A stretch of 64,000 nucleotides of DNA from Eledone cirrhosa (lineage: Eukaryota), in NCBI GenBank assembly GCA_964016885.1, contig OZ024740.1:374418001-374482000 (forward strand), given 5' to 3'. The notes beneath the pieces were generated by a model, which was not told where the DNA came from, searched no databases, and saw only the letters and a program-made list of their open reading frames with translations. Position numbers and translations under genes: made by a program. Numbering within the stretch: position 1 is the first letter of the stretch; the number at the start of each line of letters is the position of its first letter. Shown in pieces: positions 6,962 through 48,553 of this stretch.

Positions 6962-6963
6962 AT

Positions 6964-7066
<103 letters not shown>

Positions 7067-24000: not shown

Positions 24001-25875
24001 TGATAAGATGGTAATGGGGAATTGCAGGAGGAGACACACTGATCTTGCCATGGGATGGATAGACTACAGAAAGGCATTTGACATGGTGCCTCATTCCTGG
24101 ATCACCAAAAGCCTGGAGATCTTCAGGGTGGCAGATAACATCAGACAGTTGCTGGGCAGGAGTATGGGGTCCTGGGAGACAGAGTTGACATCAACTGGAG
24201 TATCCTTGGGAAGCGTGAAGATCAAGAGAGGTATCTTCCAGGGAGATAGCCTGTCCCCTCTGTTGTTTGTCCTTGCCCTGATGCCCTTGACCATTATGCT
24301 GCGAAAAGTGAGAGCAGGATACAAGTTGGGAAGGGGAGAGCTTACCATCAATCACCTCCTCTTCATGGACGATCTTAAGCTCTTCGGGAAAAGTGAGAAG
24401 GAGTTGGATGTGCTTGTTGACACTGTCCGTATTTTCAGCAGTGATATATGTATGCAGTTTGGTATTGGTAAATGTGGAGTCATTGTGATGAGGAGGGGTA
24501 GGTTGAGCAGAAGTAACGGGATCCAGATACCAACAGGTGAGATGATAAAGGAAATTGACTCTGAGGAAGGATACAAGTATTTGGGCGTTCTGGAGGCTGA
24601 TGGCATAAAGAACAAAAAAATGAAGGAATTGTTAAGAACTGAATACATTCGGAGAGTAAGGAGCGTATTGAAGTCACATCTGAACAGCAGAAATGCCATA
24701 AGCGCAGTAAATTCCCGAGCTGTGTCTATTATTAGGTACAGTGCGGGAATTCTGAGATGGAATGTTGCTGAACAAAAAGAAATGGATAGGAAGACTAGGA
24801 AGCTATTGACTATCTACAACATGTTCCACAAGAGGAGTGATGTCGATAGACTCTACCTAAGGAGATCTGAGGGTGGAAGAGGTCTTATCAGCATAGAGGA
24901 CTGTGTTCAGATGGAGAAAAACAACCTATACAAATACGTGACCTATAGTAAGGAGCCAATGCTCAGAGCTGTACTGAAGGAGGGGACAGTAGGCCAGGGG
25001 ATACCCAAGGAGGAAATAACATCAAGGAGGAAGAGCAGCCTTAAGGGAAAATCCCTTCATAGTACCTTCTTTGAGAAAACTGAATTTAGAGATCCATAGA
25101 CATGGAACTGGTTGAGAAGAGGAGACCTCAAAAAGGCTACAGAAGGAATGCTAATGGCTGCACAGGAGCAGGCCCTCAAAACGAAGTGGTTGAAGCACCA
25201 TATCTACAAGGAGGAGGCTAGCCCACTGTGCAGGATCTGTGGAGAGAGAGAGGAGACTGTGGCTCACATTGTGTCCGAGTGTAAACACCTAGCCCAGACC
25301 CACTATAAGGGCTGGAGACACGATGTGATGGGCAGGGTGATCCACTGGCACCTGTGCAAAGTAAACAATCTACCACATTCTGAGAAATGGTATGAGCATA
25401 GGCCAGAGGCGGTGATGGAGAACAGTCAGGTGAAGGTGCTGTGGGATTTTAGGATACAGACGGACAAAAAACTGGAACACAATAGACCTGACCTGGTGGT
25501 TGTGGACAAAGAAAAAAGATCGTGCCTGATTGTGGATGTGGCCTGCCCGTTCGACACGAGAGTGCAAGAGAAGGAGAGGGAGAAAATTAACCGATACCAG
25601 GACCTAAAGTGGGAGGTGAAAAGGATTTGGAACTGCCATGAAGTCAAAGTGATCCCGATTGTCATAGGCGCACTGGGGACTATCTCCAAAGGTTTCCAGG
25701 GATGGTTAAAGAAAATCGGCCCCTTCACGCTTTTTGGAACGCTTCAAAAGGCATGCTTGCTTGGAACGGCAAGAACCCTCCGATACGTCCTGAATATCTG
25801 AGGCTGCAGGTAGTGGCTTGATATTCAATCCAACGGACTTTCCAGTTGACCAACATCAATGACTGAGATTCAAGG
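21028..25875 (+). mobile_element. R4/Dong-like RLE non-LTR retrotransposon, family A (A1 subfamily), full-length, young
   Basis: (TAA)n on both flanks, a 1.4-kb leader with the same 5' start as the copy ending at 6961, a single long ORF and a 75-nt 3' UTR. Confidence 0.95.
22409..25801 (+). pseudogene. Family A polyprotein (Myb-like N-terminus, RT, CCHC, RLE; 1130 codons) with one premature stop at 25097-25099
   Basis: ORFs 22409-25099 and 25112-25801 are in the same frame, and the TAG corresponds to CAG in the 45-48 kb copy. Motifs: YRPITCL, DYRKAFD, QGDSLSP, FMDD, CRIC-x8-H-x4-C, RHD, RPD, D-VACP, EKINRY. Confidence 0.93.
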
Positions 25876-26168
25876 AATAACAATAACAATAATAATAATA
25901 ATAATAATAATAATGTTTTCTTTATTAACCACAAGGGTTTACATAAAGTAGACATTAAGGACAGTACAGGACAATACAGGACAATACAGGACGGTACAAA
26001 TGGGCATTTCTGCGTGTAAAAAAAACAGCGGATGAAATAAAATAACAAAGAAAAATTCCCCAATAGGGGGGAGACTTCCGATGGACATTTGTGGAGAAAG
26101 CCCATTAAAAGACCACAGTGGCCCTGACCACCAGGGCAAGTGCCCTCTCCCAGTTTTCCACCTTCAAT

Positions 26169-29100
26169 TTACAGACACATACTCAGAGAAGGCCCATTCA
26201 TTCGGGCCATACTTGCTTCTCTCACCCATCTTTTAACAAAATGCTGGGAAGAGAGCACTTCCCTCTCTACCCTGATTTTCCTTTTCAAATGAAATTTGAA
26301 AAAGTTAATCAGGGCATCACCGAAGAGGTAAGTGCTCCGTCTTCAGCCCTTTCAAACGTGTCCACCATACTATCTCTTTCGCCATGGCCACCAGACAGAT
26401 AAACACTGCCTGCCCTTCCCGGCTAAAGGAAGGGGGCGGGGCAACCCTCACGATGGACTCAGCTGATAGCTGGATCCGTCCTACATGTGACAGCAGGTGT
26501 TCGACATAAACCCACAAGTCAGCAATGCTCGGACACTGGACGAGTGCGTGCAGGACGGTTTCGTCGCCCTGTGCGCATCTCGGACATGCCCGACTGACGC
26601 CACCTCCATACCTGTAAAGTTTATCCCGAACTGGCAAAGCACCCCGGTAGCACTGCCAGGCCATGGATTTCTGGAAGTTGTCCATAGGCCCCGGCCCGAA
26701 AGTCCTTCCTAAGAGATTGGCTAGTTGTTTCTCGTCGACGCCTAGAGTTTCTCCAAGTACGTCGTCGCTCTTCCCCTCCACTAATCCCCTATAGAACGCC
26801 AAGGTGTAGTTTCCACCGATCACATTGCCCGATTGGTCGAGGGCTGTGAGCGCCTGGAGACATTCCAGTCTCCAAGCGCTCCCTCTCGGTCTTCCCTTGA
26901 CCCAGGACTGCAGCTCCGTCAAGGAGACGAGCTGGGGAAAAACGTGTCTAGCAAACGGCGATCACACCTGATCATCGTCGAGGAAGAGGTGGAGATGTCG
27001 TAGCCTGAGCGCGTGTCTGCGCATCATCAGCCACGGCATGCCCAGCCCTCCACGTACCGGGTGTTGACAGCAGATGGACCGCCTGACCATCGGAGCGCGT
27101 TCCTTCCACAAGCAGCGAAAGAGCAAACGCTCCAGCGCAGTCAGGCGGGGCTTATGACAAGGTACGACGGTCAGGCGGTAGTAGATGACGGACGCGATGT
27201 ACGCGTTAGCCACCTCCGCTCGACCTTTCAGGGATAGCTTCCTCTCGGCCCATTTCTGGGTGAGAGAAGCCACCCTGCTCGTCACCTCGTCCCAGTTTCT
27301 ATCCGTCTGGAGGTCTGGACCGAACCAGACCCCTAGCAATTTAACCGGTCCGTCTGTCCAGCGCCCGGCGACGCTGTTGGACGGCATGGACCTGCTTGTC
27401 CAGGTGCCGAGCTGCAGGCCCACTGACTTTTCCAGGTTGATCATTGCTCCTGTCACCGCTTCGTATTCTCTTAGTTTAGTGCCGATCGCCTCGATGTGTT
27501 TGGCGTTCGACACACACTACGGTGACATCGTCGGCATATGCTGACACGGATCTTCCGCATCCTAGTTCGCGCGGGATCCCCCTCAACGTCTCCAGTTTCT
27601 GCAGTAATGGCTCGAGAGTCAATACGTACAATAGGGACGAGAGGGGACATCCTTGGCGGACCGAGCGCATGATGTTGAACGGTTCCGAAAGGTGACCGTT
27701 CACTCTCACTACAGAGCAGATGTTGCTGTGCATGGCAGCGATCCAGCATCTGAAGACGGGCCCAAAGCCAGCCGCCCTCAGGACTGCCTCTTGGTAACGA
27801 TGGTCGACCCTATCGAAGGCTTTCGACTTATCTAAATTGATCAAAGACCCACCCGTGCCAGGTTCCCTAGCTACCCTCTCTACGATGTATCGGATGAGGT
27901 GGAGGTTGTCGTGGATGGATCTGTCGGGAATGGCGCATGTCTGTGCCTCTCCCACCAGACCACCAACGACAAGCGCCAACCTCTTTCCTTGCACCTTGGC
28001 CAAAATCTTGAACTCTGTGTTTAGCAGAGTTATGGGCCTAAAATTATCTATGTTATCCCCCTGTTCGGATCCTTTCTCAGCAGCGCCACCGCTCCTCGGC
28101 TCACAGAGCTGGGAATTCTCCCGTTCTGTTGCCAGTTGCAGTAGACATCCGCCAAGAGGCCTCCGAACAAGTTTGGCATTTGTACGTAAAGTTCATATGG
28201 CAGACCATCCAAACCAGGCGATTTACCCCTTGTGCAACTAGTCATTGCATCCCGTACTTCAGCGGTTGTTATCGGCTTTTCGCAACACTCCGCCTCAGTG
28301 GCCGAAAGCCGCGGCAGTCCGTCGAGGTAGACACTAAAGTCCATCCCTCGATCCGGCCCGCCACTGCCCCCGAACAGTTGAGCGAAGTGTCGCTGAAAAG
28401 CTTCACACATTTGCCCGGGATCGAGTAGCATGCGCCCGTCGTTGCCCACCAAAGACCGGATCGTGGCTTTGTTGCCACGGCGCGCCTCCGCCACTCGGGC
28501 CCATTGAACGGCTTTCGTCCCCTCGTGTCTGAGAGCACGCACCCTAGCTCTGACAACGCAGCCTTCGTGCTTTGCATTGACGAATTGGTCAAGGGCCAAT
28601 TTCGCCGCAAGTACGTCGGTCGCGATGCCTTTGCTAAGCGCCTCATCTAATTTTCTAACTAATTCTCCCTCTGCTCTATTTTTCTCTATTGCTAAAGTCT
28701 TACTAAACCTAATGGACTCTATTCTAATTGCTCTTTTCAGAGGAAACCACCACTTGTTGTCGACGATGGCCCCCGTCAACGCCCGCTTAACTAGTTCGCT
28801 AATCAGGTCTCTGTAGGCCTTGTGCGCTGGTAAGGACGCGTTTAGCTTCCAGTAGCCGGGTCCTCGTCTATGAAGCCTATCTAAGTCAAGCACACAGATC
28901 ACGAATTTGTGGTCCGTGTAGCTGACTATCTTGAATTGTGGACAGCCTATGCTAGACCTATCTATTTCCCTACAAAATACTCTATCTAGATATGATCTGG
29001 ATGACCCAATGCGATTTAACCAAGTCCACATTGGTACATTCGGGAAATCCATTCGGTACCTGTCAGACAGTTCAAAACGTCTGAGCAGGTTGGTGAGTCT

Positions 29101-29591
29101 CTTGCACCCTCCTTCCATATCCACTAATCCCACACAATCCCAGCATGCATCTAAGATCCCTATCCAGTCGCCCACTAACACTAAAGAGCGGGACGTTCCA
29201 AGAAAGGTCTCCAGGCGCCGGAAGAAATCAGGCCGCCCTACTCCTGTCGGGGCATAGACGGCCACTGATCTGAAAGCTTGGCCGTCTCCGCTGGTCACGT
29301 CCAGCACCACCAACTTACCTTCTGGGTCCAGGAAGATGGCCCGTATAGCAAGATCCAAACCTCTCCGAAAAAGCACAGCAACTCCCCCCCCCCCGATCCC
29401 GGACGGCTGGGAGATGCGTACACATCGTAGCCGCCGAAGATCGGTGCTAAAACCTGTGCTTCGGAGATTCTGGTCTCGCTGATGGCCACTACAACTATGT
29501 TTAGTGACCTGAGGTCGTTGAGCAGGTGGCCCTGCTTCCATGACGACCCCAAGCCACGCGCATTTATGCTGCCTATTCTGAGTGAGGTCAT
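26169..29591 (-). pseudogene. Tx1a ORF2 (AP endonuclease, RT, C-terminal Cys/His motif), frameshifted
   Basis: Motifs SINARGL, ISETR, VGDW, YLDRVF, TDHK, PGYWKLN, KSPGLDGLP, KAFDRVDH, RQGCPLS, YADD and CPRC...ETVLHALVQC. Confidence 0.92.
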
Positions 29592-29625
29592 GTTGAAAAG
29601 GAGTGGAAAAGATGGGAAAGACCAC

Positions 29626-31479
29626 TTACCTTACTTCTCGTAGGGGAAGGACGGTTTTTCCATCCTTTTCACTGCTTGTGGCCTCCTCAGGAAGGATGTC
29701 CTTATAAATCCTCCTGGAGAGTGCTTGTCGGAAGTCTCCGATGTCTTTGGGGAATTTTTGTTTTAGTGTCATGTACGTTTTCTGTGTGATGCGAGTGATT
29801 TGTATGTGTGGAGTTGGTGTGAATTTTGGGGTTGTTGTGTAGTCTTTTTCTGTGATGCTGGTATTGTGTTGGATGTAGTGTAATAATTGCTTGTTGTTCA
29901 AATTTAATGCTGTGTAGTGTGTATCGTTTTGGTTGTTTTGTTTTGTTTGCGTTTGTTGTGGGTTTGTTTCTGTTTCGCATTTTGGTGACTTTTGTGGTGT
30001 AGGTGATGGTGGTGTTGGGGTTAATGATGGTGATGGTGTTGGTGTTTGGGTTGATGGGGTTGGTGATGCTGGTGTGGATGGTGGCATATCTGTCCTAACT
30101 TTTTTGTTTCTTAATTTATTTGTTTCCCTCTGTATTTTCTTTTTGGAGGGGGAAGGAAGAGAATTTTTTTTTTTTTTTTTTCCGGATATCGTTTCCCACT
30201 CCTCGTCGTCACAATCTGTCTCCAGTTGTGATAGGCCGGGGAGTGGAAAATCCTCCACAGCCGTTAGTTTTGGTTGTGGCGTGGTGGATGGTGTAGGCGC
30301 TGGTGCTATTCTGAAGTGTTGGGTGGTGGTGGTGTTGGTTTTGCTGGTGGTGGTGGTGGTGTTGGTTTTGCTACTGTTGCTGGGGTTGTTGCTGTTATAG
30401 TTGCTTCTCTTGTTGCTGCTACAGTTGTTGCTGCCATCTCTGCTACTGGTGGTGTTGATGGTTGTGTCACTGGGGTGGGTAGGAGAGGTGGCCTCAACCT
30501 TTTAGCCTGAGGGCAGAAAGCCCTTAGGTGGGTTCCTTCACCACAAACGACACACCTAGGTCTTCTGCCCTCGACAATTACCGTGAGGTGGCTGCCGTGA
30601 GTGAGGTCTATTACCTCTGGGAACTCCTCAATGCTTTTTTGGTCCGCTTGGATCAGGAGCTCCATCCCAGATCCGGACCAGTTCTCCTTGTTTTCTTTTG
30701 CTATTGCTATTATTTTCGTGTTGGCTTCGATGCCGGCGAGGACAGCCGCTATTAGCCAGGGAATTTCGATGGCCGGTGGAACGTGGGTCACCGTGATCTT
30801 TACGAGTCTCAGGCCACAATAGCTTGGGACGAGTGTGAAGTCGTCACTTCTTAATGGGGGCCATGGAGTGTTCTCTAGACTCCTCTGGTGCTTCAAAGAA
30901 CACGTCCACGGTTCCATACTTTTGCCCACGTCTGATGTGGGTTTTCCTTGCCCACACATGTCCCAAAGCTTTTTGGATTTGGGACTCGGATGCCCGTTCC
31001 ACTCGGCGCGATTTTACATTTATTGTTCCATACGACACGGTGCATAGGCGCCGATGCTCCATTTTATTAGGTGAGGGGGGGGGGGTGAGGCTGACCCTGT
31101 ACCCATCTTTCTTTACCATTTGTTTGGCATTTTCTAAATCCTCCTGAGTTACCGTAAATGCTTCGAACTGTTTTGCTACTCTGGCGAAACTGAGGGGGGT
31201 GGTGTTTATAATGTCATTGTTGTTGTTCTTGCTTTCGTTAATATTAATTTTAGTTTCAGTTGTGGTGGTGGTGACATCAGTCGTCTTTGGTGGGGAAGAG
31301 TCCATTTTGCTTGATTTCATTTCGACATCACGAGTTAATTTATTTTTTTCTTCTTTTGTTTCTGTTGTCGCGGTGGTGGTGGTGGTGGTGGTGGTGGTTG
31401 TCGCGGTGGTGGTGGTGGTGGAGGCTTTAACACCTGCAGTCATTGGTAATGGCGGGAAATGAATGTCTGCCTGAGACAA
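29626..31479 (-). pseudogene. Tx1a ORF1 (gag-like, one CX2CX4HX4C knuckle, Pro/Thr-rich linker), in three frameshifted pieces
   Basis: ORFs 30844-31479, 30306-30959 (CVVCGEGTHLRAFC) and 29626-30258. Collinear similarity to ORF1 at 42.2-44.3 kb, e.g. RVERASESQIQKALG versus RVERATEAQIQKALG. Confidence 0.85.
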
Positions 31480-31820
31480 ATTTAAAATATTGCTAGTGCT
31501 TATATTTTTTTTGTGTTGGCAAATGTAGTAACATTTACGATGGTGGTGTCGGTGTGAGGTGTTAATTTGTGAGGGAGGCTTTCAGCTGCTTCGTGCAGAG
31601 GTGAAATAGCCATTTTTTTCAAAGAAATTTTTTTGATAATAATAAAAGTTTAATTTTGGGCACAAGGCCCCAATCTATTTGGGTGTCCTTTTCGGAAAAC
31701 GATGTATGTGCGCTTATAAACAGTTAACAATAAAATTTTCCATAAATGACAATTTTTAACAAACCGAAATAACAAAACTTTGCGGAGCTCACGATGATAC
31801 GAGTTACTACGTAGGTCGCC

Positions 31821-31874
<54 letters not shown>

Positions 31875-31953
31875 TAATATTAATTGTGGAATTTTTCATA
31901 ATAATAAATATAATAATATCAATATTATTATAATACTTGTTGTCTATAATAAA

Positions 31954-32012
<59 letters not shown>

Positions 32013-32013
<1 letters not shown>

Positions 32014-33530
32014 TAATATTAATTGTGGAATTTTTCAGGGTGACTCTTTATCACCGCTTTTATTCTGGATCGCACTTATACCATTAAGTAAAATGGTCAA
32101 TGAAACAAAACATGGATATAAAATATATGACAAAACCATTAATCACTTGTTCTACATGGATGACCTGAAACTATTTGCAAAAAATGATGAACAATTGCAA
32201 GGGCTATTATCCACTGTGAAGCAGTTCAGTGATGACATTAAAATGGAGTTTGGACTAGACAAATGCGCCAAAGCAACGTTCACCAGAGGAAAGCTGCTGA
32301 AGAGTTCAGACATTAATCTTGATCGGGGGAACGTGATAAGAGAACTTGATCAGGAAAAAACTTACAAATACCTAGGTGTTTGTGAAGGAGACGGAATCAA
32401 GCACTCGACAATGAGGGAAAGGATAAGGAAGGAATGTTACCGCAGAGTAAGAGCAATCTTAAGAACAGAATTGAAAGCAAGGAATAGGATCGATGCCATA
32501 AACACGCTAGCCATACCAGTAGTAACCTACAGTTACAATGTCATCAAAAGGTCAAGCACAGAGATCCGTAGGCTCGATACACAAATTCGAAAACTCTTAA
32601 CCATGCACAGACTGCATCACCCTAAGGCAGATATAGATAGAATATATCTCCCTAGGATAGAAGGAGGACGTGGGTTAATCCAGTTAGACATTGCGTTGAA
32701 AACTGCAACAATTGGATTATCTACATATCTAAGGGAATCACATGGATGGATGATCAAACTCTTTTGAAACACGAAAGCATCAAAAGATCATATTCCATTA
32801 CAAAAGATGCACAAAGATACAGTAATGGACTACAAATTTCAGAAGTCCCATTTACTGCTGAAATGGAAAACACAGAAAAAGCAAAGCAGGTAAAAGTAAC
32901 TGCAAAGAAAGAACTGCTACAGAAACTGGCTAAGAAATGGCAAGAAAAGCCTCTGTATGGAAAATACCCAGAGCGTGCTAACAATCCTGATGTTGACAAA
33001 ACTTTAACCCATCAGTGGTTGGCATCCTCTGGACTGAAATCGGAGACTGAAGGACTGATTATATCCGCACAAGATCAGTGTCTGCCAACAAAAAATTACC
33101 AAGCCAACATAATAAAACATGGATGCAGCCCGTTATGCCGTGTATGCAAAAAAACAACCAAAAAACAACCAAAATTGAGCAAGTATAAGGACCTGGAGAT
33201 AGAAATTGGAAAAATGTGGAAATTGAGAACTAAAACAATACCAGTGGTTGTAGGCGCTCTGGGAATGATACCTAAGGGGTCTAATGATTACATATCGCAA
33301 ATCCCAGGAAACCCGCGTATAGGAGAAATACAAAAGATAGTACTAATGGGAACTGCCCATATACTAAGGAAGATTCTGTCAATATAAGTACATCACAAGT
33401 CTAAACACTAAAGATGCATGTGTGAATATGTATGTTCTTTCTTGAACATGGCGGACCTTGTTGTCTCTTGAGGTCACTGGTTGTGACTTGGTGATAACTC
33501 GTATGAACATAAAGCAAGATAAATGCAACT

Positions 33531-33531
<1 letters not shown>
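32013..33531 (+). mobile_element. Family B 5'-truncated copy (starts in RT), with a frameshift and a deletion in the RLE region
   Basis: ORFs 31937-32767 and 32746-33387 match 7210-8870. CRVCKK is joined almost directly to LSKYKDL, and the 3' end runs into (TAA)n. Confidence 0.92.
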
Positions 33532-33583
<52 letters not shown>

Positions 33584-33584
<1 letters not shown>

Positions 33585-33818
33585 TCAAAGAGATCCCGAT
33601 TGTCATAGGCGCACTAGAGACTATCACAAACAGTTTCCAGGGATGGTTAAAGAAAATTGGCCCCTTCACGCTTTTTGGAACGCTTCAAAAGGCATGCTTG
33701 CTGGGAACAGTAATAACCCTCCGATACGTCCTGAATATCTGAGGCTGCAGGTAGTGGCTTGATATTCATTTCAACAAACTTTCCATTTAACTAACATCAA
33801 TGACTGAGATTCAAAGAG
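33584..33818 (+). mobile_element. Family A 3'-terminal fragment (about 235 bp)
   Basis: Encodes VKEIPIVIGAL...LRYVLNI* plus the A 3' UTR, between TAA tracts. Confidence 0.9.
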
Positions 33819-33883
33819 TAATAATAATAATAATAATATTGTTATACTTTGGGAGGGTCATGTTGCCAATAATAATAATGTTT

Positions 33884-36800
33884 AATGTTTAAATCCAATA
33901 TTAAGGGAATATGTCAACACATATATTAAACATACGCGACAAACCTCATAGATACACCGATCAAACAAACTACAGTCTATTCAACAAGACTCAGTATCGA
34001 CAACGCCATCACTATAGTCACCGCCGCCACCACTCCACCCATCATTGCTACCACTATCCCATCACCGCCGCCACCACACCTTCATTGCTATCACTACTAT
34101 TCCCCCATTACCTTCTGTTAACTTACGAAAGGGGAAGGTGGCGGTATCACTAGACAATATCAATATTTAATTTTGGATCAGGAATGTTATAGTCGAAAAG
34201 GTGGAAAATGGCAAAATGGCTAAATAGCTAAATAGCTAAATGGTTAAGTGGACAGAGAAGATAATTTCACCACCAACACCACCACCACCACTACCACGCT
34301 AAAACCTCTAGTCAAGTTACCTCAACTTCTATTTCTACTTCAACTTCACTACAGTACTGCGATCACAGCACACCACCACTGCCTCATTATCGCCACCGCC
34401 GCTATTCTCTCCCACTACATCCTGCTAGGTACTAGTAGCACAGCACCACCACCACCACCTCCTCATTATCACTACCGCCGCTATTCTCTCCCACTACATC
34501 CTGCTAAGACATGCATCGTAGTGTCCCCACTAAAAGAAGAAGGCATCAAAATATATAAATAGACTGACTTGATGACCCGGTCAAAAAATTAAAAAAACAA
34601 AAATCAAAATCAAAGCAGCACAGAAACAACGAAAAACGTAAAGAAAAGAAAAATGAAGACAAAATCAAAAAGACGGACGGAGAGGGGGAAGGGGAAAAAC
34701 TAAGTCAGACATTCAAACATTACATTACAATGAAACTTATGCTTATTCTTTTTTGGTTTGTTTTTCGCCTGTTTGTTTGTTTGTTTGTTTATGTTAGTCT
34801 ACAGCGTGATAGTGCTACACACAAATCACCGGGAGTGATGAAATCACGGGAGGTCATGAAATCACCGGTGGTTATGTAACCATACATCACCAATCCTCGA
34901 TAAGAGTATTTAAATGTCGAACCTAAACAATTCGAATAACGATGAATTGGAGACTAGAATGTCATGTGACATACTCTCACCCAGCAGATGCTCCCTGGCA
35001 CAGCAGCAGGGACCTGGCTGTCATCCAAATACTGCTGGTGTCGGAGGAAGAAGAAGAAGGAAAAGGACCAGAACCAATTGGACGAAAGAATTGAATAGAA
35101 CTGTTTTGCAATGTTACCTGAAGAGTAACCCCAAGGAGAAAGGCTATAGGAAACGGATGCATAACATCTGGAACGAGATCGGTCTATTTAAATTAGATGA
35201 ACAAAAATTGGTCGGTCAGGCTCGGGTAAAAAGAACTAATGGAAGGATAAGCGAGCTGGAACTGGAGGAACTGAGCAGACAGATTAGCTTGGAGATGAAG
35301 AGTGGAGTATGCCAGGCAAACGAGCCAGTAGGAAATGAAGGTGAAGAGGTCGAAAGAAAGGATGAACCATCCGAAGCAGACAATGATCTGAATGCTGAAA
35401 TAAATAATACCTGGAACAAAGATCCGGCCACTGAGGAGATGAATGCTGACGGGCTAGGACAAGATTTGGTTGATATCCTAAACTTAGTGGCAGATGAATT
35501 GAACAATGATAGTGGCAAACCTATGAACCTAAGATTTGTAGACAGGAAAAAGTTAAAAGAAACAAAAGCTAAGGTAAACAAAGTAATCCCATAGCTTGAG
35601 GCGAAGAGCCTTCACCAGTGCAACAATATCCTCAAAGCAACAGCAAATGCGGTGAGGAAATTACTTGGTATAAAAGCGAGAGGAAACAACAAACAAGAAA
35701 GATCAGAGCCTTGGTGGAAGAAACGACTGAATGGTCAAATCAGGGAAATGAGAAATGACATTGGAAAGCTTGAGTCCCTACTGAATGTGACACTAAAAAA
35801 ACATAGACACTAAAAATAGACTGGAAATAAAGTACAAAACTAGGAGGAAAAGGCTAAATATTATCATAGAGGAACTGAAGCAACATTGTAGCAAAGGGTG
35901 CAAACATTAGGCGATAAGAGAGCAGTGTCAGTCAGTATAGACAGAACCGCATGTTTGACAACAACCAGACGATGCTGTTTGGACAGCTTGAAGGGAAAGA
36001 AAGTGGCAACAACTTGATCCCTGAGGCGAAACAAACGGAAACATTCTGGAGAGGAATATGGGAGCAGGATGTTAAACATAATGACCAGGCAGTGTGGATT
36101 GAGACAGTACAGAAGGAGATTAGTGAACAGGCACACCAACAAACTGACTTGAGTATCACAGTTGAAACTCTTAAGGGGCAGGCTAAAAAACTAACCAACT
36201 GGAAATCACCAGGCCCAGATGGTGTGCAGGGGTATTGGATTAAAAATATAACATCCCTCCACCCGAAACTGACAACCATGTTCAATGAGTGTTTGATGTC
36301 AGGTGAGGTACCAGAGAGGTTGACAAAAGGTACAACAGTTCTGGTAATGAAAGACCGAATCAAGAGTAATGATGTTACCAACTATAGACCTATCACATGT
36401 CTGTCTGTAATATGGAAACTGTTGACAAGCATTATGTCTGAGGAAATCTACCATCACCTCCACACAAACAACTTGTTACCGGACGAACAGAAAGGATGCC
36501 GAAAGAAGTCACGTGGTACAAAGGACCAGTTACTTACTGAAAAGATGGTAATTAGGAATTGCAAGAGGAGACACACTGGTCTTGCCATGGGATGGATAGA
36601 CTACAAAAAGGCATTTGACATGGTACCTCATTCTTGGATCACCAAAAGCCTAGAGATCTTCAAGGTGGCAGATAACATCAGACAGTTGTTGGGCAAAAGT
36701 ATGAAGTCCTGGAAAACAGAGTTAACATCAGCTGGAGAATCCTTGGGAGGCGTGAAGATCAAGAGTGGTATCTTCCAGGGAGATAGTCTGTCCCCTCTGT

Positions 36801-38413
36801 TGTTTGTCCTTGCCCTGATGCCCCTGACCATTATACTGCGAAATGTGAGAGCCAGATACAAGTTGGGAAAGGGAGAGCTTACCATCAATCACCTCCTCTT
36901 CATGGATTATCTTAAGCTCTTCGGGAAGAGTAAGAAGGGGTTGGATGTGTTTGTTGACACTGTCCGTATTTTCAGCAATGATATATGTATGCAATTTGGT
37001 ATTAGTAAGTGTGGAGTCCTTGTGATGAAGAGTGGTAAATTGAGCAGAAGCAAAGGAATCCGGGTACCAACAGGTGAGATGATAAAGGAAATTGACACTG
37101 AAGAAGGATACAAGTATTTGGGTGTTCTGGTGGCTGATGACATCAAGAACAAAAAACATGAAGGAATTGATAAGATCTGAATACATTAGGAGAGTATGGA
37201 GCGTATTAAAGTCACATCTGAACTGTAGGAATGCCATAAGTGCAGTAAATTCCCGAGCTGTGTCTATTATTAGGTACAGTGCGGGAATTCTGAGATGGAA
37301 TGTTGCTGAACAAAAAGAAATGGATAGGAAGACTAGGAAGCTATTGACTATCTACAACATGTTCCACAAGAGGAGTGATGTAGTTAGATTCTACTTAAGG
37401 AAATTTGAAGGTGGAAGAGGTCTTATCAGCATAGAGGACTAGTTACGATGGAGAAAAATAACCTACACAACTACGTGACTGATAGTAAGGAGCCAATGCT
37501 CAGAACTGTACTGAAGGAGAGGACAATAGACCTGGGAATGTCCAATGACGAAATAACAACAAGGAGAAAGAACAGCCTTCAGGAAAAAATCCCTTCATAG
37601 TACCTTCTTTGAGAAAACGGAATTCAGAGATCCACAGACATGGAACTGGTTGAAAAGAGGAGACCTTTAAAAGGCTACAGAAGGAATGTTAATGGCTGCG
37701 CAAGAGCAGGCCCCCACAACGAAGTGTTTGAGACACCATATTTACAAGAAGGAGGCTAGCCCACTGTGCAGGATCTGTGTAGAGAGAGAGGAGACTGTGG
37801 CTCACATTGTATCCGAGTGTAAATACCTAGCCCAGACTCACTATAAGGGCTGGAGACATGATGTGATGGGCAGGGTGATACACTGGCACATATGCAAAGT
37901 AAACAATTTACCACATTGTGAGAAGTGGTATGAGCATAAGCCAGACTCTGTGATAAAAAACGATCAGGTGAAGATTCTGTGGGATTTTAGGATACAGACG
38001 GACAAGAAACTGGAACACAATAGACCTGACCTGGTGGTTTTGGACAAAGAAAAAAGATCGTGCCTGATTGAGGATGTGGCCTGCCCATTCGACACGAGAG
38101 TGCAAGAGAAGGAGAGGGAGAAAATTAACCGATACCAGGACTTACAGTGGGAGGTAAAAAGGATTTGGAACTGCCATGAAGTCAAAGTGGTCCCGATTGT
38201 CATAGGCACACTAGGTACTATCTCAAAATGTTTCCAGGGATGGTTAAAGAAAATTGGCCCCTTCACGCTGTTTGGAACGCTGCAAAAGGCATGCTTGCTG
38301 GGAATAGCAAGAACCCTCCGATACGTCCTCAATAGCTAAGGCTGCAGGTAGTGGCTTGATATTCATTTCAACAAACTTTCCAGTTAACTAACATCAATGA
38401 CTGAGACTCAAAG
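33884..38413 (+). mobile_element. Family A (A2 subfamily) copy, leader partly truncated, ORF 34914-38339 with several stops and frameshifts
   Basis: ORF pieces 34914-35594, 35951-37180, 37092-37442 and 37686-38339 are collinear with 22409-25801; TAA tail. Confidence 0.93.
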
Positions 38414-38416
38414 AAC

Positions 38417-38469
<53 letters not shown>

Positions 38470-38473
38470 TAAT

Positions 38474-41400
38474 GATATATTTATTGGCCACCAGGGCTGA
38501 CATCAAGAAGAACATTAAAGACGGCACAGGATGGTACGATGTGGGTTTTGTGCGTGTAAATATTTTTATTGTTTATATAAGAAAAGAAAAAAATAACATA
38601 AAACATATATATATATATAAACAATAAAAATGAAAATTGAAACAATGAAAAATTCCTCAATAGAGGGGAAACCTCCGAGGGTTACTCGTGGCGTAAACCA
38701 CACAAAAGACAACGGCCACCATGACCACCAGGGCAAGCGCCCTCTCAATGTTTCCATCTCTCAAACTACAGACGTATATTCATAGTGGTCCCGTTCACTC
38801 GGACCGTTCTGGCTACATTCACCCACCGTTCAACAAACTTGCTAGAAAGCAGCACTTGCCTCTCCACCATGAATTTCCTCTTCAAGTGAAACTTTAAAAA
38901 GTTAATTTGGGATTCGCCGAAGATGAAAGTGTTTGTCTGTAATCCTTTTAACCTTGTCCACCACACAATCTCTTTCGCCATGGCCACCAGGCAGATGAAA
39001 ACCGCCTGCCCTTCCTCTTCGAAGGAAGACGGCGAGACCATCTGCACAATGGACTCAGGCGATAACTGGATCAGTCCTACACCAGACAGCAACTGTTTGA
39101 CATAGCTCCACAAGTCAGCAATGCTCGGGCACTGAACGAGTGCGTGCACGAAGGTTTCGTCGCTCTGCGCGCATCTCGGACAGGCTCGGCTGACGGCACT
39201 TCGGGGCTTGTAGAGCTTATCTCGAACCGGCAGCGCTCCCCGGTAGCACTGCCAGGCCAGGGATTTTTGGAAGTTATCCATAGGCCCCGGGCTGAAAGTT
39301 CTCTGGAAGAGAGCAAGCAGCTGATCTTCTTCGACGCCCAGGATCTCTCCGAGAACGTCGACGCATCTCCCCTCCAATAGTCCTCTATAGAACGCCGAGG
39401 TGGATGTTCCACCGATACTGGTGCCCAACTGGAAGAGGGCAGTGAGCGCCTGGAGACATTCTAGTTTCCAAGCGCTATCCCTCGGTCTTTTTCTGATCCA
39501 GGACTGCAGCTCCATCAAGGAAACGAGCTGTGGGAAAACGTGCTTGGCGAACGGCGTCCACACCCGTTCACCATCAAGGAAGCACCAGAGATATCGCAGC
39601 CTCAACGCATGTTTGTGCATCATCAGCCATGGCATGCCCAGTTCTCCACGCAACGGGTGTTGGCAGCAGATGGATCGTCTGACCATGAGAGCGCGTCCCT
39701 TCCACAAAAAGCGGAAGAGGAGGCGCTCCATTTTGGTGAGAGTTGGGCTGGAGCAAGGGACGACGGCGAGGCGGTAGCAGATGACGAATGCTATGTACGC
39801 ATTCGCCACTTCCGTCCGGCCTTTTAGGGACAGCTTCCTCTCAGCCCATTTCTGGGTGAGGGAGGCGACCCTGCTCGTCACCTCGTTCCAGTTTTTCTCC
39901 ATCTGGAGGTCCGGTCCGAACCAGACCCCGAGCAATTTAACCCGTCCGTTCCTCCAACGCTCCACGACGCTGTCGGACGGCATGGACTTGCCTCTCCAGG
40001 TGCCGAGCTGCAAGCCCACCGACTTTTCCTGGTTTATGTTTGCTCCTGCCACCGCTGCGTATTCCTTGAGAGCGGTGCCGAGCATCTGGACGTGTCTGGT
40101 GCTCGATACCACCACTGTGACGTCGTCAGCGTAATCCGACTCGGATATCCCGCATCCTAGTTCGCGTGGGACGCCCCTCGTCGTCCCCAGTTTGTGCAGT
40201 AACGGCTCCAGAGTCAATACGTACAAGAGGGACGAGAGGGGACAACCCCTGCGGACTGAGCGCATGATGCTGAACGGCCGCGACAGGTGACCGTTCACCC
40301 TCACAACTCAGCAGACATGGCTGTACATTGCTGCGATACAACCCCTGAAAACCGTCCCGAAACCGTCTGCCTTGAGGACCGCTGCCAGGTACCGATGGTC
40401 TACCCTATCGAATGCTTTCGTTTGATCCAAGTTGATCAGGGCCCCATCCTTGCCATGTTCTTTAACCAGCCTCTCTATGATGTATCGCATGAGGTGGATG
40501 TTGTCGTGTATGGATCTGTCAGGAATGGCGCATGTCTGCGCCTCTCCCACCAGACCCTTGACGACAAGCGCCAACCTCGTAGCTAACACCTCCGCCAAAA
40601 TCATGAACTCTGCGTTTAGCAGGGTTATGGGCCGGAAATTATCCATAACATCCCCCTTGTTCGGGTCTTTTCTCAGCAGCCCAAAAGCTCCCCAGCTCAC
40701 AAAACTGGGAATGCTCCCGTTCTGCTGCCAATTGCAGTAGACGTCTGCCAAGACGTCACCGAACAAGTCTGGCATAATTGCATAAAGCTCGTAGGGAAGA
40801 CCATCTAAACCTTATCCCCTTGTGCAGTTAGCCGTCGCTTCCCGTATTTCACCGGCTGATATTGTCTTTTCGCAACACTGTGCTGCGGTCGTCGAGAGCC
40901 GAGGCAGTCCGTCGATGTATGCACTGAAGTCCATGCCTCGATCCGGGCCGCCGCCGCTCGCGAACAGTTCAGCAAATTGCTGCTGAAAACCTTCACACAT
41001 CCGCTCGGGTTCGAGCATCACACACCCGATTTGGTCAGACAAAGACCGAATTGTGGCTTTGTACCCACGTCGCGCCTCTGCCACCCGGGCCCACTGGACG
41101 GCTTTTGTCCCCTCGTGTTTCAGAGCAGGCGCTCTAGCTCTGGCAACGCAGCCTTCTTTTTTTGCGTTGAAGAATTGGTCGAGTGCCAATCTCTCGCAAG
41201 CACGTCGGTTGCGATGCCTGTCCTAAACGCCTCTTCTAGCTTTCTGACTAGCTCTCCCTCTACTCTATTTTCCTCTATCACTACTCCTTTGCTAAACCTA
41301 ATCGACTCTACTTCAATTGCCCTTTTCAGGGCGAAACACCACCTGTTGTTGACGACCGCTCCCGTCAACGCCCGCTTAACTAATACGCTAACCCGGTCTC

Positions 41401-44400
41401 TGTAGGCTTTGCGCGCCGGGAAAGACGCGTTCAGCTTCCAGTAACCAGGCCCTTGTCTATGAAGTATGTCTATGTTGATCTCACAGATCACAAATTTGTG
41501 GTCTGTGTAGTCGACTATTTTAAATTGTGGACAACTTATCCTAGCCTTATCTAGTTCTCTGCAGAAAACCCTATCGAGACACGATCTGGATGACCCGATG
41601 CGGTTTGTCCATGTCCACATTGGCACATTCGGGTGATCCAGTCGATACCTGTCAGACAGTTCAAAACGTCTGAGCAGGTTGGTGAGCCTATTGCACCCTC
41701 CTCCCCTATCCACTAACCCCAGACGATCCCACCGTGCATCCAAGATACCGTTCCAGTCGCCCACTAACACTAAAGAGCGGGACGTTCGAAGAAAGGTCTC
41801 TAGACGTCTGAAGAAATCTGGCCGTCCTGCCCCTGTTGGGACGTAGACGGCTACTAGCCTGAAAGCATTGCCTTCGCTGCCGGTCACGTCCAGCACCACC
41901 GACTTACCTTCTGGGTCCAGGAAGATGGCCCGTATCGCGAGATCCAAGCCTCTCCGAAAAAGGACGACAACCCCTCCCCCGATCCTGGACGGCTGGGAGA
42001 TGCGTATACATCGTAGCGGCCGAAGATCGGTGAGAAGGCCTGTGCCTCGGAGATTCTGGTTTCACTGATGGCCACCAAATCCATGCTTAGTGGCCTGAGG
42101 TCATTGAGCAAGTGACCCTGCTTCAAAGATGACCTCAGGCAACGTGCATTTATACTGCCTGTGTACAGCCATGTTGGATGAGAAACGGGCCATGTGAGAA
42201 AGGGTCACTTACCTTGTTGGTGTGGTGAAGGGACAGTAGAACCGTCCCTTTCGCTGGTCATGGGTGTTTCCAAGAGGATGTCAGTGTATATCCTCTTTGG
42301 TAACCGACCATCTGAAGTCTCCAACTGCGTTGGGGAATTTTTGTTTTAAAGGTTTTTACTGTTCTATTGAGATTTCGATTATGCTTATGTTTGTCGGGAG
42401 AGTTCTTGGTGTTGGTGGGGTATAGTAGTTTCTTTTCTGTGATATCTGTGTGCTGCTTTATATATTGTATGAGTTCTTTTTTTGCCATGTTTATGGCTGT
42501 GTACTTTTTGGGGGGAGGGGTGATTTTGTTGCTGTTTTCTTCTTGTTGCTGTATGCTGTGTTTGTCTTGTTGTGTTTGCGTTGTTGGTGTTTGTGGTGGT
42601 GATGGTGGTGGGGTTGCTGCAAGTTTCTTTGCTGCCTTTACCCCTCTTTGTATGCCTTCGCTTTTGGAGGGTGAATTTAAGGTTTTTTTTTGTTTTTTGT
42701 TTTTTTGTGGCAGGCTCTTTGCCACTTCACTCCCGCCTCAAACTCCATGTCGGATTCTGTGGCGTCTGGGAGGGGTATGTGCTCCACGGTTGTTGGTGGT
42801 GGTAGTGGAGCCCTCTTCGGCAATGTTGTTGCTGGTGTAGCTACTTTAAATGTAGCTATTGGTGTTGCCGCTACTGACGATGCTGCTTTAGTTATCCGTG
42901 GCCTTCTTACGGGTGCTACGGACGTTGCTCTCCTACTCAGTGGAAGGGGCTTCTTCGTTTGTTGCCTGTCCTGCTCTTGGTAGCAGCGGACCAGGTATTG
43001 GAAAGAAAGGGGCTCTCTTCGCTGTCTTCTGCGGGCAAAGGTCCCTGAGGTTACCCTTCGACCCACAGTGATAACATTTTGGCCGTCTTCCTTCTACACT
43101 TATAGGGGGTTGGAGTCCTTCCTCGATGTATATGATATCGGGGATAGCCTCGATACGTTCCTTGTCAGTTTGTATAAGCATTTGCGTGCCTATACCTGAC
43201 CAGTTCTCTCTCCCTATTTTTTCTACTTTCAGCATGGTCGCCCTGTTCTCAATTCCAGCAAGGACAGACGCGGCCAGCCAAGGTATGGGCACGTCGGGTG
43301 GGACCTGGGTCACTTTGACCCTCACAATTTTCTGCCCGCAGTAGGAGGGCACCAAGACTATCTCCTCACTCTTTAGGGTTTCCAAAGAGTGAGACTTTGC
43401 TTCCTGGGGGTGGCGAAAATTACGTCTAATATGGCGTACTTTCTGCCTCGGGTGATGTGGGTTTTGCGTAGCCAGACGCACCCCAAGGCCTTTTGGATTT
43501 GAGCCTCTGTGGCTCTCTCCACTCGATGTGAGATTTTGCTTACGGTGCGGTAAGTCACCGTCCATAGCTGCTGGTCCTTGAAAAAATCGGGTGGAGGTTT
43601 CAGGGAAACTCTATTTGCGCTTCTTGTCACCATGACCCTTGCGACTGCCATCTCCTCCTCTGTGACTAACACTGTCTCGATATTTCGGGCGACCCTGCAA
43701 AAGAAGTGGTCTCTTTTTCAGCAGGACCACTATTGCTGCCGCTACTGGTCTTACTGGTGGTGCTTAGGTTGCTATTACAGGTATCGGTGTCATTGTTATT
43801 GTTTACGCTGGTACAGTTGTTGGTGTTGTTGTTGTTGTTTTCGTTGATACTGTTGCTGTTGTTACTGTTATTGTGGCTGTTTTTATTATTGTTGTTTTTG
43901 TTGATACTGTTCCTACTATTATTGTTGATGTGGCTGTTGTTATTGTCCTTATTATTGTCGTTCTCGACCTTACCGCTGTTATTTTTGTTATTGTCGTTCT
44001 CGACCTTACCGCTGTTATTTTTATTATTGCCGTTCTCGACTTTACCGCTGTTATTTTTGGTGTTGTTGTTGGTGTTGCTGTTGGTGTTATTGTTGGTGTT
44101 GTTTGTGTTAGGAATATTTGGTAATTTTAAATCTGTAACAATCTTTTTTCCTTTGTAATATTTCCGTTTATATTTACCTCCGCTGGAACGCTGTCTTGTT
44201 GACATACTGATAATGGTTCCCTCTCTCTGTCTTGTCTGACAGCGCTCTCTCTCTTTCTTGTGTATCCATGTTGAAATTAAAAAAATATGTATAGTTTTAC
44301 ACAAATACGAATACGACACCCCGTAAAGGGGTGCCGTATTATTTACTAGTGAACCCCTGTATTAGGTCGGTCACTTCTTCTAAACTTTTCTCAAATTTAA

Positions 44401-44482
44401 AACTTGAATAAAAGGTTTAGAACGGTTGAAAAAGAGGTAAAACGTTGAAAAAAACTGGAGGCGATAAGAACGTGGCTTCACC
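38474..44482 (-). mobile_element. L1/Tx1-clade non-LTR retrotransposon, family Tx1b, full-length, frameshifted
   Basis: ORF1 at about 42205-44269 (Asn-rich N-terminus with three 33-bp repeats at 43955-44060; CYHCGSKGNLRDLC). ORF2 at 38766-42172 (VGDWN, TDHK, KAFDRVDH, YADD, CPRC). The 3' end is AATAAA then (ATT)n, with the microsatellite on both sides. Confidence 0.92.
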
Positions 44483-44491
44483 AACAATAAC

Positions 44492-44559
<68 letters not shown>

Positions 44560-44580
44560 TAATAATAATAATAATAATAA

Positions 44581-47500
44581 TCTGCTAAAAAAGAGGAAGG
44601 CATCAAAATTATAGAATCCCTACTGCTAAAAAAGAGGAAGGCATCAAAATATATAGATAGACTCAAAAGAAAAAAGAAAAAACAAACAACAAAACCAAAG
44701 CAGCACAGCAACAACAGCAAAAAACGAGAAAAACAAACAGAGAAAAACAAAAACAAAAAAAAACCCCCCAAAACGTAAAGAAAATAAGAATGAAGAGAGA
44801 AGCAGGCGGACGGACAGAGAAGAGGGGGGAAAAACTAAAACTAAAAAAACAAAAACTAAGTCAAACATTCGAACACTACATTACAATGAAACTTATGCTT
44901 ATTCATTTTTGGGGCCCTTTCTGCCTGTGTGTTTGTTTGTTTATGTGTGTTCGTATACAGCGTGGTGATAATGCCACACAAGGGCCAAGTGGAATGGCGG
45001 ATCCACAGACGGCTATGTAACCATACATTCGCCAATCCTCGATAAGAGTGTTTAAATATCGAACATAAACAGTTCGAATAACGGTGAAATGGAGACTAGA
45101 ACGTCATGTGACAGACTCTCACCCAACAGGTGCCCCCTGGCTCAGCAGCAGGAACCTGACTGTCAACCAAATACTGCTGATGTTGGAGGAAGGAGAAGAA
45201 GGAAAGGGGCCAGAACCAACTGGACGAAAGAATTGAATAGAACTGTTATGCAATGTTACCTGAAAAGTAACCACAAGGAGAGGGGCTACAGGAGACGGAT
45301 GCATAACATCTGGAACGAGATTGGTTTATTTAAATTAGATGAACAAACATTGGCCGGGCAGGCTCGGGTAATAAGAACTAATGGGTGGATAAGCGAGCTG
45401 GAACTGGAGGAACTGAGCAGAGAGAATGGCTTGGAGATGGCGGGTGTAGTATGCCAGACAAGCGAGCCAGTGGGAAATGAAGGTGAAGAGGTCCTGAGAA
45501 CGGAGGAACCACCCGAAGCAGACAATGAACTGAATACTGAGATAAATAATACCTGGAACAGAGATACGGCCACTGAGGAGATGAATGCTGACGGGCTAGG
45601 ACAAGATTCGGTTGACATCCTAAATTTAGTGGTAGATGAATTGAACAATGATAGTGGGAGACCTATGAACCTAAGATTTGTAAACAGGAAAAAGTTAATA
45701 GAAACAACAGCTAAGGTAAACAAAGTCATCCCATACCTTGAGGCGAGGAGCCTTCACCAGTGCAACAATATCCTCAAAGCAACAGCAAATACGGTGAGGA
45801 AACTACTTGGTATAAAAGCGAGAGGAAACAACAGACAAGAAAGAGCAGAGCCATGGTGGAATAAGCGACTGAGTGGGCAAATCGGGGAAATGAGAAATGA
45901 CATAGGAAAGCTTGAGTCACTACTGAATGGGACAATAAAAACATAGGCACTAAAAATAGACTGGAAATAAAATACAAAACTAGGAGGAAAAAGCTAAATA
46001 TTATCATAGAGGAACTGAAGCAACGCATTGTAGCAAAGAGTGCAAAAATCAGGCGATACGAGAACAGAGTCAGTCAGTATAAACAGAACCGCATGTTCGA
46101 CAACAACCAGAAGATGCTGTTTGGACAGCTTGAGGGGAAAGAAAGAGGCAACGACTTGATCCCTGGGGCGGAGCAAACCAAAACATTCTGGAGAGGAATA
46201 TGGGAGCAGGATGTTAGACATAATTTCCAGGCAGGGTGGATTGAGACAGTACAGAGGGAGATCGGTGAGCAGGCACAACAACAGACTGATTTGAGTATCA
46301 CAGTTGAAACTCTTAAGGGGCAGGCCAAAAAACTAACCAACTGGAAATCACCAGGCCCAGATGGTGTGCAGGGGTATTGGATTAAACATTTAACATCCCT
46401 CCACCCGAAGCTGACGGCCATGTTCAATGACTGCTTGGTGTCGGGTGAGGTGCCAGAGTGGTTGACAAAAGGTACCACAGTTCTGATAATGAAAGACCGA
46501 ATCAAGGGTAATGATGTTACCAACTATAGACCTATCACATGTCTGTCCGTAATGTGGAAACTGTTGACGAGCATTGTGTCTAAGGAAATCTACCATCACC
46601 TCCACACAAACAACTTGTTACCGGACGAACAGAAAGGATGCCGAAAGAAGTCACGTGGTACAAAGGACCAGTTACTTATTGATAAGATGGTAATGGGGAA
46701 TTGCAGGAGGAGACACACTGATCTTGCCATGGGATGGATAGACTACAGAAAGGCATTTGACATGGTGCCTTATTCTTGGATCACCAAAAGCCTGGAGATC
46801 TTCAGGGTGGCAGATAACATCAGACAGTTGCTGGGCAGGAGTATGGGGTCCTGGGAGACAGAGTTGACATCAACTGGAGTATCCTTGGGAAGCGTGAAGA
46901 TCAAGAGAGGTATCTTCCAGGGAGATAGCCTGTCCCCTCTGTTGTTTGTCCTTGCCCTGATGCCATTGACCATCATGCTGCGAAAAGTGAGAGCAGGATA
47001 CAAGTTGGGAAGGGGAGAGCTTACCATCAATCACCTCCTCTTCATGGACGATCTTAAGCTCTTCGGGAAAAGTGAGAAGGAGTTGGATGTGCTTGTTGAC
47101 ACTGTCCGTATTTTCAGCAGTGATATATGTATGCAGTTTGGTATTGGTAAATGTGGAGTCATTGTGATGAGGAGGGGTAGGTTGAGCAGAAGTAACGGGA
47201 TCCAGATACCAACAGGTGAGATGATAAAGGAAATTGACTCTGGGGAAGGATACAAGTATTTGGGCGTTCTGGAGGCTGATGGCATAAAGAACAAAAAAAT
47301 GAAGGAATTGTTAAGAACTGAATACATTCGGAGAGTAAGGAGCGTATTGAAGTCACATCTGAACAGCAGAAATGCCATAAGCGCAGTAAATTCCCGAGCT
47401 GTGTCTATTATTAGGTACAGTGCGGGAATTCTGAGATGGAATGTTGCTGAACAAAAAGAAATGGATAGGAAGACTAGGAAGCTATTGACTATCTACAACA

Positions 47501-48553
47501 TGTTCCACAAGCGGAGTGATGTCGATAGACTCTACCTAAGGAGATCTGAGGGTGGAAGAGGTCTTATCAGCATAGAGGACTGTGTTCAGATGGAGAAAAA
47601 CAACCTATACAAATACGTGACCTATAGTAAGGAGCCAATGCTCAGAGCTGTACTGAAGGAGGGGACAGTAGGCCAGGGGATGTCCAAGGAGGAAATAACA
47701 TCAAGGAGGAAGAGCAGCCTTAAGGGAAAATCCCTTCATAGTACCTTCTTTGAGAAAACTGAATTTAGAGATCCACAGACATGGAACTGGTTGAGAAGAG
47801 GAGACCTCAAAAAGGCTACAGAAGGAATGCTGATGGCTGCGCATGAGCAGGCCCTCAAAACGAAGTGGTTGAAGCACCATATTTACAAGGAGGAGGCTAG
47901 CCCACTGTGCAAGATCTGTGGAGAGAGAGAGGAGACTGTGGCTCACATTGTGTCCGAGTATAAACACCTAGCCCAGACACACTATAAGGGCTGGAGACAC
48001 GATGTGATGGGCAGGGTGATCCACTGGCACCTGTGCAAAGTAAACAATTTACCACATTCTGAGAAATGGTATGAGCATAGGCCAGAGGCGGTGATGGAGA
48101 ACAATCAGGTGAAGGTGCTGTGGGATTTTGGGATACAGACGGACAAAAAACTGGAACACAATAGACCTGACCTGTTGGTTGTGGACAAAGAAAAAAGATC
48201 GTGTCTGATTGTGGATGTGGCCTGCCCGTTCGACACGAGAGTGCAAGAGAAGGAGAGGGAGAAAATGAACCACTACCAGGACCTAAAGTGGGAGGTGAAA
48301 AGGATTTGGCACTGCCATGAAGTCAAAGTGATCCCCATTGTCATAGGCGCACTGGGGACTATCTCCAAAAGTTTCCAGGGATGGTTAAAGAAAATCGGCC
48401 CCTTCACGCTTTTTGGAACGCTTCAAAAGGCATGCTTGCTTGGAACAGCAAGAACCCTCCGATACGTCATGAATATCTGAGGCTGCAGGTAATGGCTTGA
48501 TATTCAATCCAACGGACTTTCCAGTTAACCAACATCAATGACTGAGATTCAAG

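Follow-up and report, generated by a model that had tools for sequence, protein, structure and literature searches.

Does a conserved splice-donor sequence at the boundary between the two open reading frames of an octopus LINE serve to remove a tiny intron and fuse ORF1 to ORF2, or is it kept for another use? The question is raised by a locus within the window analyzed here, a 64,000-nucleotide stretch of the Eledone cirrhosa genome (contig OZ024740.1, positions 374,418,001 to 374,482,000, assembly GCA_964016885.1), in which a sequence-only reading had proposed an in-frame mini-intron in a decayed copy referred to as Tx1b. The relevant features are:

42159..42212, minus strand: 54-nt GT..AG segment, covering the linker between ORF1 and ORF2 and the opening codons of ORF2 in the decayed Tx1b copy
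42207..42215, minus strand (GT at 42212-42211): AAG/GTAAGT 5' splice-site consensus in phase 1 of ORF1, reaching from its final codons into the first stop-codon base
42205..42207, minus strand: ORF1 stop codon TGA of Tx1b
42170..42172, minus strand: ORF2 start ATG in CCAACATGG context, in frame in sibling copies and off frame in the window copy
42205..44361, minus strand: frameshifted remains of Tx1b ORF1 with a zinc-knuckle-like motif and a conserved C-terminal domain
38766..42172, minus strand: frameshifted remnant of Tx1b ORF2, which in intact relatives encodes APE endonuclease, RT and zf-RVT
38417..38509, minus strand: Tx1b 3' end with acceptor-like TTCTTGATGTCAG (38509-38497, candidate distal acceptor), AATAAA (38485-38480) and an (ATT)n tail
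41902..41910 (Tx1b) and 29313-29321 (Tx1a), minus strand: second perfect donor-like 9-mer, within ORF2, codons E-G-K

The element is an L1-clade non-LTR retrotransposon. An intact ORF2 of the related subfamily Tx1a matches PF03372, PF00078 and PF13966 (APE endonuclease, RT and zf-RVT), has human L1 ORF2p as its best PDB match (E 1e-51) and is 85% identical to the Tx1b ORF2, and the elements carry a separate upstream ORF1, a poly(A) signal and a 3' tail and have no LTRs. The name Tx1 is the label given in the sequence-only reading; the RT tree was built without named Tx1 references and the listed homologs carry no Tx1 name. A zf-CCHC match in the Tx1b ORF1 (E 0.0066) falls below the curated cut-off, and no zf-CCHC match was obtained for the Tx1a ORF1. 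Named homologs come from Octopus sinensis and Argonauta hians, and the host genome measures 3.0 Gb. One Octopus sinensis gene model annotated as 'tectonic-3-like' (P0004) includes a segment that matches a portion of ORF2 at 66% identity and is probably a transposable element piece that was mis-joined or exonised. Tx1 copies at L068 and L069 and in the window (25888-31874 and 38417-44581) end in AATAAA and (ATT)n, adjoin (ATT)n runs and form head-to-tail arrays with a unit of about 5.9 kb; a preference of these copies for (ATT)n targets is possible. Many Tx1 families typically show target-sequence preference. The Tx1 copies are surrounded by several copies of other, RT-bearing LINEs (window 2311-11646, 22376-25801, 31934-38339 and 45056-48480), the C-terminal motif of which is presumably a restriction-like endonuclease. 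In total, five octopus subfamilies were recovered, namely Tx1a, Tx1b, Tx1c, Tx1e and Tx1f. The last of these (L140-L169) is very young, with all 40 listed matches rounding to 100% identity over 501 nt, and many of its copies have open ORF1 and ORF2.

The features attributed to the 54-nt segment are all present in the window copy. Read from 42212 to 42159 on the minus strand, it starts with GTAAGTG after CAA G, contains no internal AG and ends in CAG; its donor lies in phase 1 of the ORF1-homologous frame (...PHQQGK-stop) and its excision yields ...PHQQ-GSINARCL. The linker ATG (42172) is, as had been stated, off the ORF2 frame. Comparison with 29 sibling loci (93-94% identity to the window copy) places a 5-nt gap in the window copy: the missing bases are present in 28 siblings, while the 29th (L020) has a different, 9-nt loss. 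The distance from the donor to the ATA-AAT codons is therefore 59 nt in the window copy compared with 64 nt in 26 of the 29 siblings, the other three being L020 and two loci with point-mutated donors that were left uncalled (L015 and L029). Siblings read GTACTCAGAATAGGCAG where the window copy reads GTACACAGGCAG, and the lost 5 nt correspond to the stretch from the first to the second AG. None of the 100 sibling matches listed first (of 369), with spans of 87 or 86 nt, showed this shortened spacing. In the siblings, ORF1 ends in ...PHEQGK-stop and ORF2 has an in-frame ATG of its own (MAVLRIGS). Use of the first AG (54 nt) as acceptor leads to a stop one codon later, and the fusion is in frame only with the second AG (59 nt). 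Both peculiarities of the window copy, the in-frame fusion and the off-frame linker ATG, thus go back to the missing 5 nt between the two AGs.

The 54-nt segment is therefore nothing other than the usual linker between ORF1 and ORF2, in a decayed copy of an L1-clade (Tx1-like) element, and it is in frame solely via the 5-nt loss. It has the GT..AG ends and the donor consensus of a mini-intron, whereas neither acceptor nor frame is conserved within the family or in relatives, and an in-frame outcome beyond chance was not borne out. The proposal that this copy independently supports a fusion, its first AG having shifted to match the donor phase, fails because the in-frame outcome rests on a private deletion and the first AG leads to a stop in siblings. 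The odds of 1 in 9 given for both copies being in frame do not apply either, as Tx1a and Tx1b share ancestry and the AGs within 65 nt of the donor span two of the three frames; their 4-fold-site identity is 0.69-0.72 (here and below, 4-fold values leave out the frameshifted copy c1).

The linker of the second subfamily in the window is as follows:

29578..29632, minus strand: Tx1a linker with donor AAG/GTAAGT in phase 2 and stop TAA inside it, ORF2 ATG at 29591-29589 in frame, first AG ending at 29578 (52 nt)

Across subfamilies, a conserved ORF1-ORF2 fusion is largely refuted. Removal of an intron of 52-59 nt would join the two proteins in frame at the first AG in Tx1a and Tx1e, which represent one linker type among the five subfamilies, and at a later AG in Tx1b (59 nt) and Tx1f (50 and 53 nt), but the first AG is out of frame in Tx1b, Tx1c and Tx1f, the window copy owes its in-frame first AG to its private loss, and Tx1c has no in-frame AG within 100 nt of the donor. 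Every family has also kept its own ORF2 ATG. As a fusion RNA would encode RT in cis, intron-less genomic copies are expected; about 2% of full-length human L1 (L1PA1-6) are reported to be spliced retrocopies (PMC5860796). Searches with Tx1b and Tx1a patterns, allowing a gap of 0-30 nt between the flanks, returned no such copy against 369 unspliced copies of Tx1b and 1041 of Tx1a (0 of 1410 anchored copies). Further, a homolog search using aligned ORF1 C-termini, a weak test, revealed no longer or fused ORF1 protein at E <= 0.01 among 7999 scored. In a distant family described below, the donor lies downstream of the ORF1 stop. The fusion intron is very improbable.

What has been conserved is the donor, and on this point the sequence-only reading was borne out far more widely than it could have seen, namely in a linker survey covering all five octopus subfamilies and the distant family. 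G/GTAAGT is found 37-40 nt upstream of the ORF2 ATG in 5/5 octopus subfamilies, in phase 2 with the stop TAA inside (Tx1a and Tx1e), in phase 1 followed by TGA (Tx1b and Tx1c) or in phase 1 followed by TAA (Tx1f). As the donor was kept through changes of phase and stop codon, the constraint acts on bases and not on residues. It also outlasts a change of the ORF1 tail and forms an invariant island amid variable flanks in the linker alignment, with a Tx1a-Tx1f 4-fold-site identity of 0.53-0.56; a CTTTC downstream of the donor is likewise invariant in octopus linkers. The E-G-K 9-mer within ORF2, which serves as a control, is found in some Tx1a, Tx1b and Tx1c copies and is not kept in Tx1e or Tx1f.

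The distant family was identified on contigs of a GTDB metagenome-assembled genome (MAG). Its ORF2 is 42% identical and its 4-fold identity of 0.22-0.31 corresponds to saturated silent sites. The linker reads TAA, then G/GTAAGT, then 13 nt to the ATG in 27/27 distinct contexts, with position +7 free. As this donor follows the ORF1 stop, fusion of ORF1 and ORF2 is impossible there. A second donor lies 14 nt past the ORF2 stop and is always GTRAGT (13 GTAAGT and 6 GTGAGT of 19), and the 3' UTR contains a pyrimidine-tract/TAG site in 19/19 contexts. Assuming that a perfect donor arises by chance about once per 6 kb, we estimate a probability of roughly 0.5% per independent family for one to fall within 20 nt of the stop. 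Conservation of a splice-donor motif at the ORF1 end is well supported by sequence comparison. A literature search of limited coverage (titles and abstract openings) yielded no account of Tx1 or L1 elements with a conserved donor where ORF1 ends, and the excerpts available of three sources on L1-Tx1 context contain nothing on such a donor (PMC13282606, PMC11203168 and PMC5203782).

Several further observations concern these relatives. The GTDB genome labeled 'uncultured Arenicella sp.' (CAXXMW01; L215-L252, L259 and L260) contains 16 contigs of tandem eukaryotic Tx1-like LINE arrays, and these LINE-bearing contigs are evidently host eukaryote contamination of the MAG. The 3' UTR intron-like unit of the main distant family is kept unspliced in 19/19 contexts, and a donor consensus 14-40 nt past the ORF2 stop with an acceptor-like site about 250 nt further on is found at L234, L240, L219 and L215. 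The sister family L215/L216 has no donor at the ORF1 end and carries one only after ORF2; a TAATG stop/start overlap is found at the boundary instead (L215:5990-6006), in frame with ORF2 and suggestive of translational coupling. The distant loci L253 and L258 are also without an ORF1-end donor. A first metagenome scan for relatives gave no match, and a second one gave 18 distant loci at 29-37% identity, among which the three with readable junctions (L196, L197 and L199) have no such donor at the ORF1 stop. Viral contigs yielded only endonuclease-like matches at 20-26% identity, or none.

Such conservation could also reflect a cis-acting element that only resembles a donor, functioning in ORF1 termination and ORF2 re-initiation or as a protein-binding hairpin, in which case the chimeric subfamily Tx1e discussed below would stem from template switching or from deletion at a 2-nt AG microhomology. 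The fixed 37-40 nt spacing to the ATG and the invariant CTTTC of the octopus linkers would suit an element of this kind, but the spacing shrinks to 13 nt in the distant family, where the pyrimidine tract is missing. The donor-less family has its TAATG coupling at the same place, and G-K-stop codons readily spell AGGTAAGT; however, a repeat of the motif lies after the ORF2 stop, a position without any re-initiation, and its variation there is confined to GTRAGT. A shared hairpin is at odds with the linkers having no common fold (consensus energy -1.8 kcal/mol), and microhomology joining would have to place the Tx1e join at the exact exon end. We therefore regard a non-splice element as unlikely. 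A 9-bp hairpin between donor and linker is predicted in Tx1b and Tx1c (L062:4738-4823 and L076:188-273; z -1.1 and -2.3) and is not common to Tx1a, Tx1e and Tx1f.

If the donor is used for splicing, candidate acceptors are to be sought far downstream, one of them in the Tx1a 3' UTR:

26010..26019, minus strand: Tx1a 3' UTR acceptor-like site, a T-run plus ACACGCAG, candidate distal acceptor

By a crude score, acceptor-like sites occur near the 3' end in 15/16 family representatives, and no linker AG passes. They are positioned at about +3167 and +3580 in Tx1a/e, about +3680 in Tx1b/c, +3155 in Tx1f, and +3177 and +3730 in the distant family, and none is homologous across all families. The last ~170 nt of the Tx1f 3' UTR are free of AG, and one Tx1c copy lacks any acceptor site that scores. 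Genomic copies in which the donor is joined to a 3' UTR AG were found neither among 54 Tx1a/e matches followed by non-G nor among 14 further matches and 21 Tx1b/c matches in which the next base is A or C, screens that partly cover exons with other first bases. The absence of such copies is expected because an ORF1-only product would encode no RT, and no support is gained from it. Four odd matches among the 14 were rejected as spliced copies, as they matched sites without element sequence, and were treated as chance. In a comparison of L066 with contigs from three of the four sequencing runs of one study of unspecified kind, none of the 15 joints listed of about 1007 is a GT..AG joint at either linker; this result was counted for neither side.

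A conserved donor without a conserved acceptor would also be expected of a U1 snRNP site that acts without splicing, shielding a long intronless RNA from premature cleavage and polyadenylation within ORF2 or stabilizing or licensing the RNA, with Tx1e then being the result of a rare accidental splice. The donor is unspliced in every copy, including the post-ORF2 donor of the distant family (19/19), the splicing of which would be inherited in cis, and in Tx1b and Tx1c it is predicted to be paired in the 9-bp hairpin; U1 is also reported to have this second role at the donor of the Arabidopsis element EVD (PMC5580714). Against this, a matching acceptor-like site has been kept in 19/19 contexts of the distant family, and placement at ORF stops would suit the production of a clean monocistronic RNA more than general protection. 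U1 action without splicing is, in our view, rather unlikely.

A possible fossil of donor use is found in Tx1e, the Tx1a-derived half of which starts next to the following site:

29672..29682, minus strand: Tx1a ORF1-tail site GCCACAAGCAG; the next base after its AG is the start of the Tx1a-derived half of Tx1e

From -82 onward, Tx1e and Tx1a share 95.5% identity as far as the 3' end; upstream of -82 Tx1e has no Tx1a match and is about 90% identical to Tx1c (ORF1). The join falls exactly at CAAG/GT of Tx1c, which continues as GTAAGT, and directly after CAG of Tx1a. The parents are joined out of register, with the ORF1 tail present twice. Among 88 junctions from 160 sequences (re-fetched loci removed), 36 show this join, and of the other 52 one fits GT..AG and none fits GTRAG..AG. 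The 36 loci represent a single ancestral event, and Tx1e is an amplified subfamily with open ORFs. Since the copies lie in head-to-tail arrays, a read-through transcript could supply both partners. The parents share a 2-nt AG at the join and the Tx1a acceptor has a poor pyrimidine tract; the join fits both a splice junction and AG-microhomology joining. If viable breakpoints span about 125 nt, the chance of a breakpoint at the donor is about 2-3% by our estimate. No two-step intermediate was seen among the fetched loci. Separately, a single-locus Tx1f/Tx1a chimera (L214:1400-1420) is joined at non-splice positions (+438 to -148).

Overall, we hypothesize, with a probability of about 0.45, that the ORF1-end donor likely binds U1 snRNP and likely causes a small share of transcripts to be spliced to an acceptor far downstream. 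An ORF1-only mRNA would result, as the sequence-only reading had suggested as its alternative to fusion. The acceptor could lie in the 3' end of ORF2, in the 3' UTR or in the next copy of a tandem array, and the benefit would be an excess of ORF1p over ORF2p. Unspliced RNA would remain the template for ORF2 translation and retrotransposition, while the ORF1-only RNA, lacking RT coding capacity, would leave almost no retrocopies. If splicing occasionally reached the next copy along and landed upstream of that copy's linker, a viable chimera such as Tx1e could arise. The sequence comparisons show that the 5-nt loss is private, that ORF2 has its own in-frame ATG, that no in-frame acceptor is conserved, that the donor is retained across frame, stop and tail changes and lies past the stop in the distant family, and that a chimeric subfamily is joined at the donor. 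The proposal is supported by the conservation of the donor, the post-ORF2 donor and 3' UTR site of the distant family, the Tx1e join and the acceptor-like sites near the 3' end. Counted against it are the lack of an acceptor common to the families, the absence of donor-to-3' UTR joins among the screened copies, the donor-less family L215/L216, the origin of Tx1e in a single event with a weak acceptor and a shared AG, the non-splice chimera L214 and the donor 9-mer within ORF2.

More tentatively, an animal lineage of Tx1-like LINEs may have kept an ORF1-end donor across silent-site saturation, may make an ORF1-only subgenomic mRNA and may swap ORF1s by splicing across tandem arrays, with Tx1e as the record. 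To our knowledge, how two-ORF LINEs set their ORF1p:ORF2p ratio or gain new ORF1s is an open question. If true, this scenario would provide a concrete, testable mechanism for both, parallel to the Gag RNA of Copia elements; the in-frame fusion intron originally claimed matters little, as it does not hold. Splicing has usually been seen as harmful to LINEs (PMC5860796).

The octopus elements resemble other L1-clade/Tx1 LINEs in having two ORFs, an ORF2 with APE, RT and zf-RVT and its own ATG, a short linker, a poly(A) signal and a simple-repeat tail, and differ from them by the presence of a perfect 5' splice site conserved where ORF1 ends. Recent activity in Octopus vulgaris is listed for L1-Tx1 elements (PMC13282606, Table 1). 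In Drosophila TART, splice sites including those of 53-66 nt introns are likewise found in a non-LTR element, but these introns are antisense, non-coding and RNA-supported and lie away from the sense-strand ORF1/ORF2 boundary (PMC1636488). The closest parallel is shGAG of the Arabidopsis Ty1/Copia element EVD, the donor of which permits a short RNA and protects the full-length RNA (PMC5580714). As in the octopus elements, a conserved U1-type donor sits at the boundary between structural and enzymatic genes and is proposed to raise the level of structural protein; however, EVD is an LTR element with a single ORF in which a short intron and premature polyadenylation were shown experimentally (PMC5580714), whereas the octopus element is non-LTR and has two ORFs and candidate acceptors. 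Spliced LINE RNA that was retrotransposed, with junctions at donor or acceptor ends as inferred for Tx1e, is reported for human L1 SpIREs (PMC5860796) and for mRNA/L1 chimeras, in which donor-ended exons were spliced onto L1 before retrotransposition (PMC13174262). SpIREs arise from donors in the 5' UTR and are for the most part dead ends (PMC5860796), and mRNA/L1 chimeras add host exons (PMC13174262). Unlike either, splicing in Tx1e would have exchanged the ORF1 of one LINE family for that of another and given rise to an amplified subfamily.
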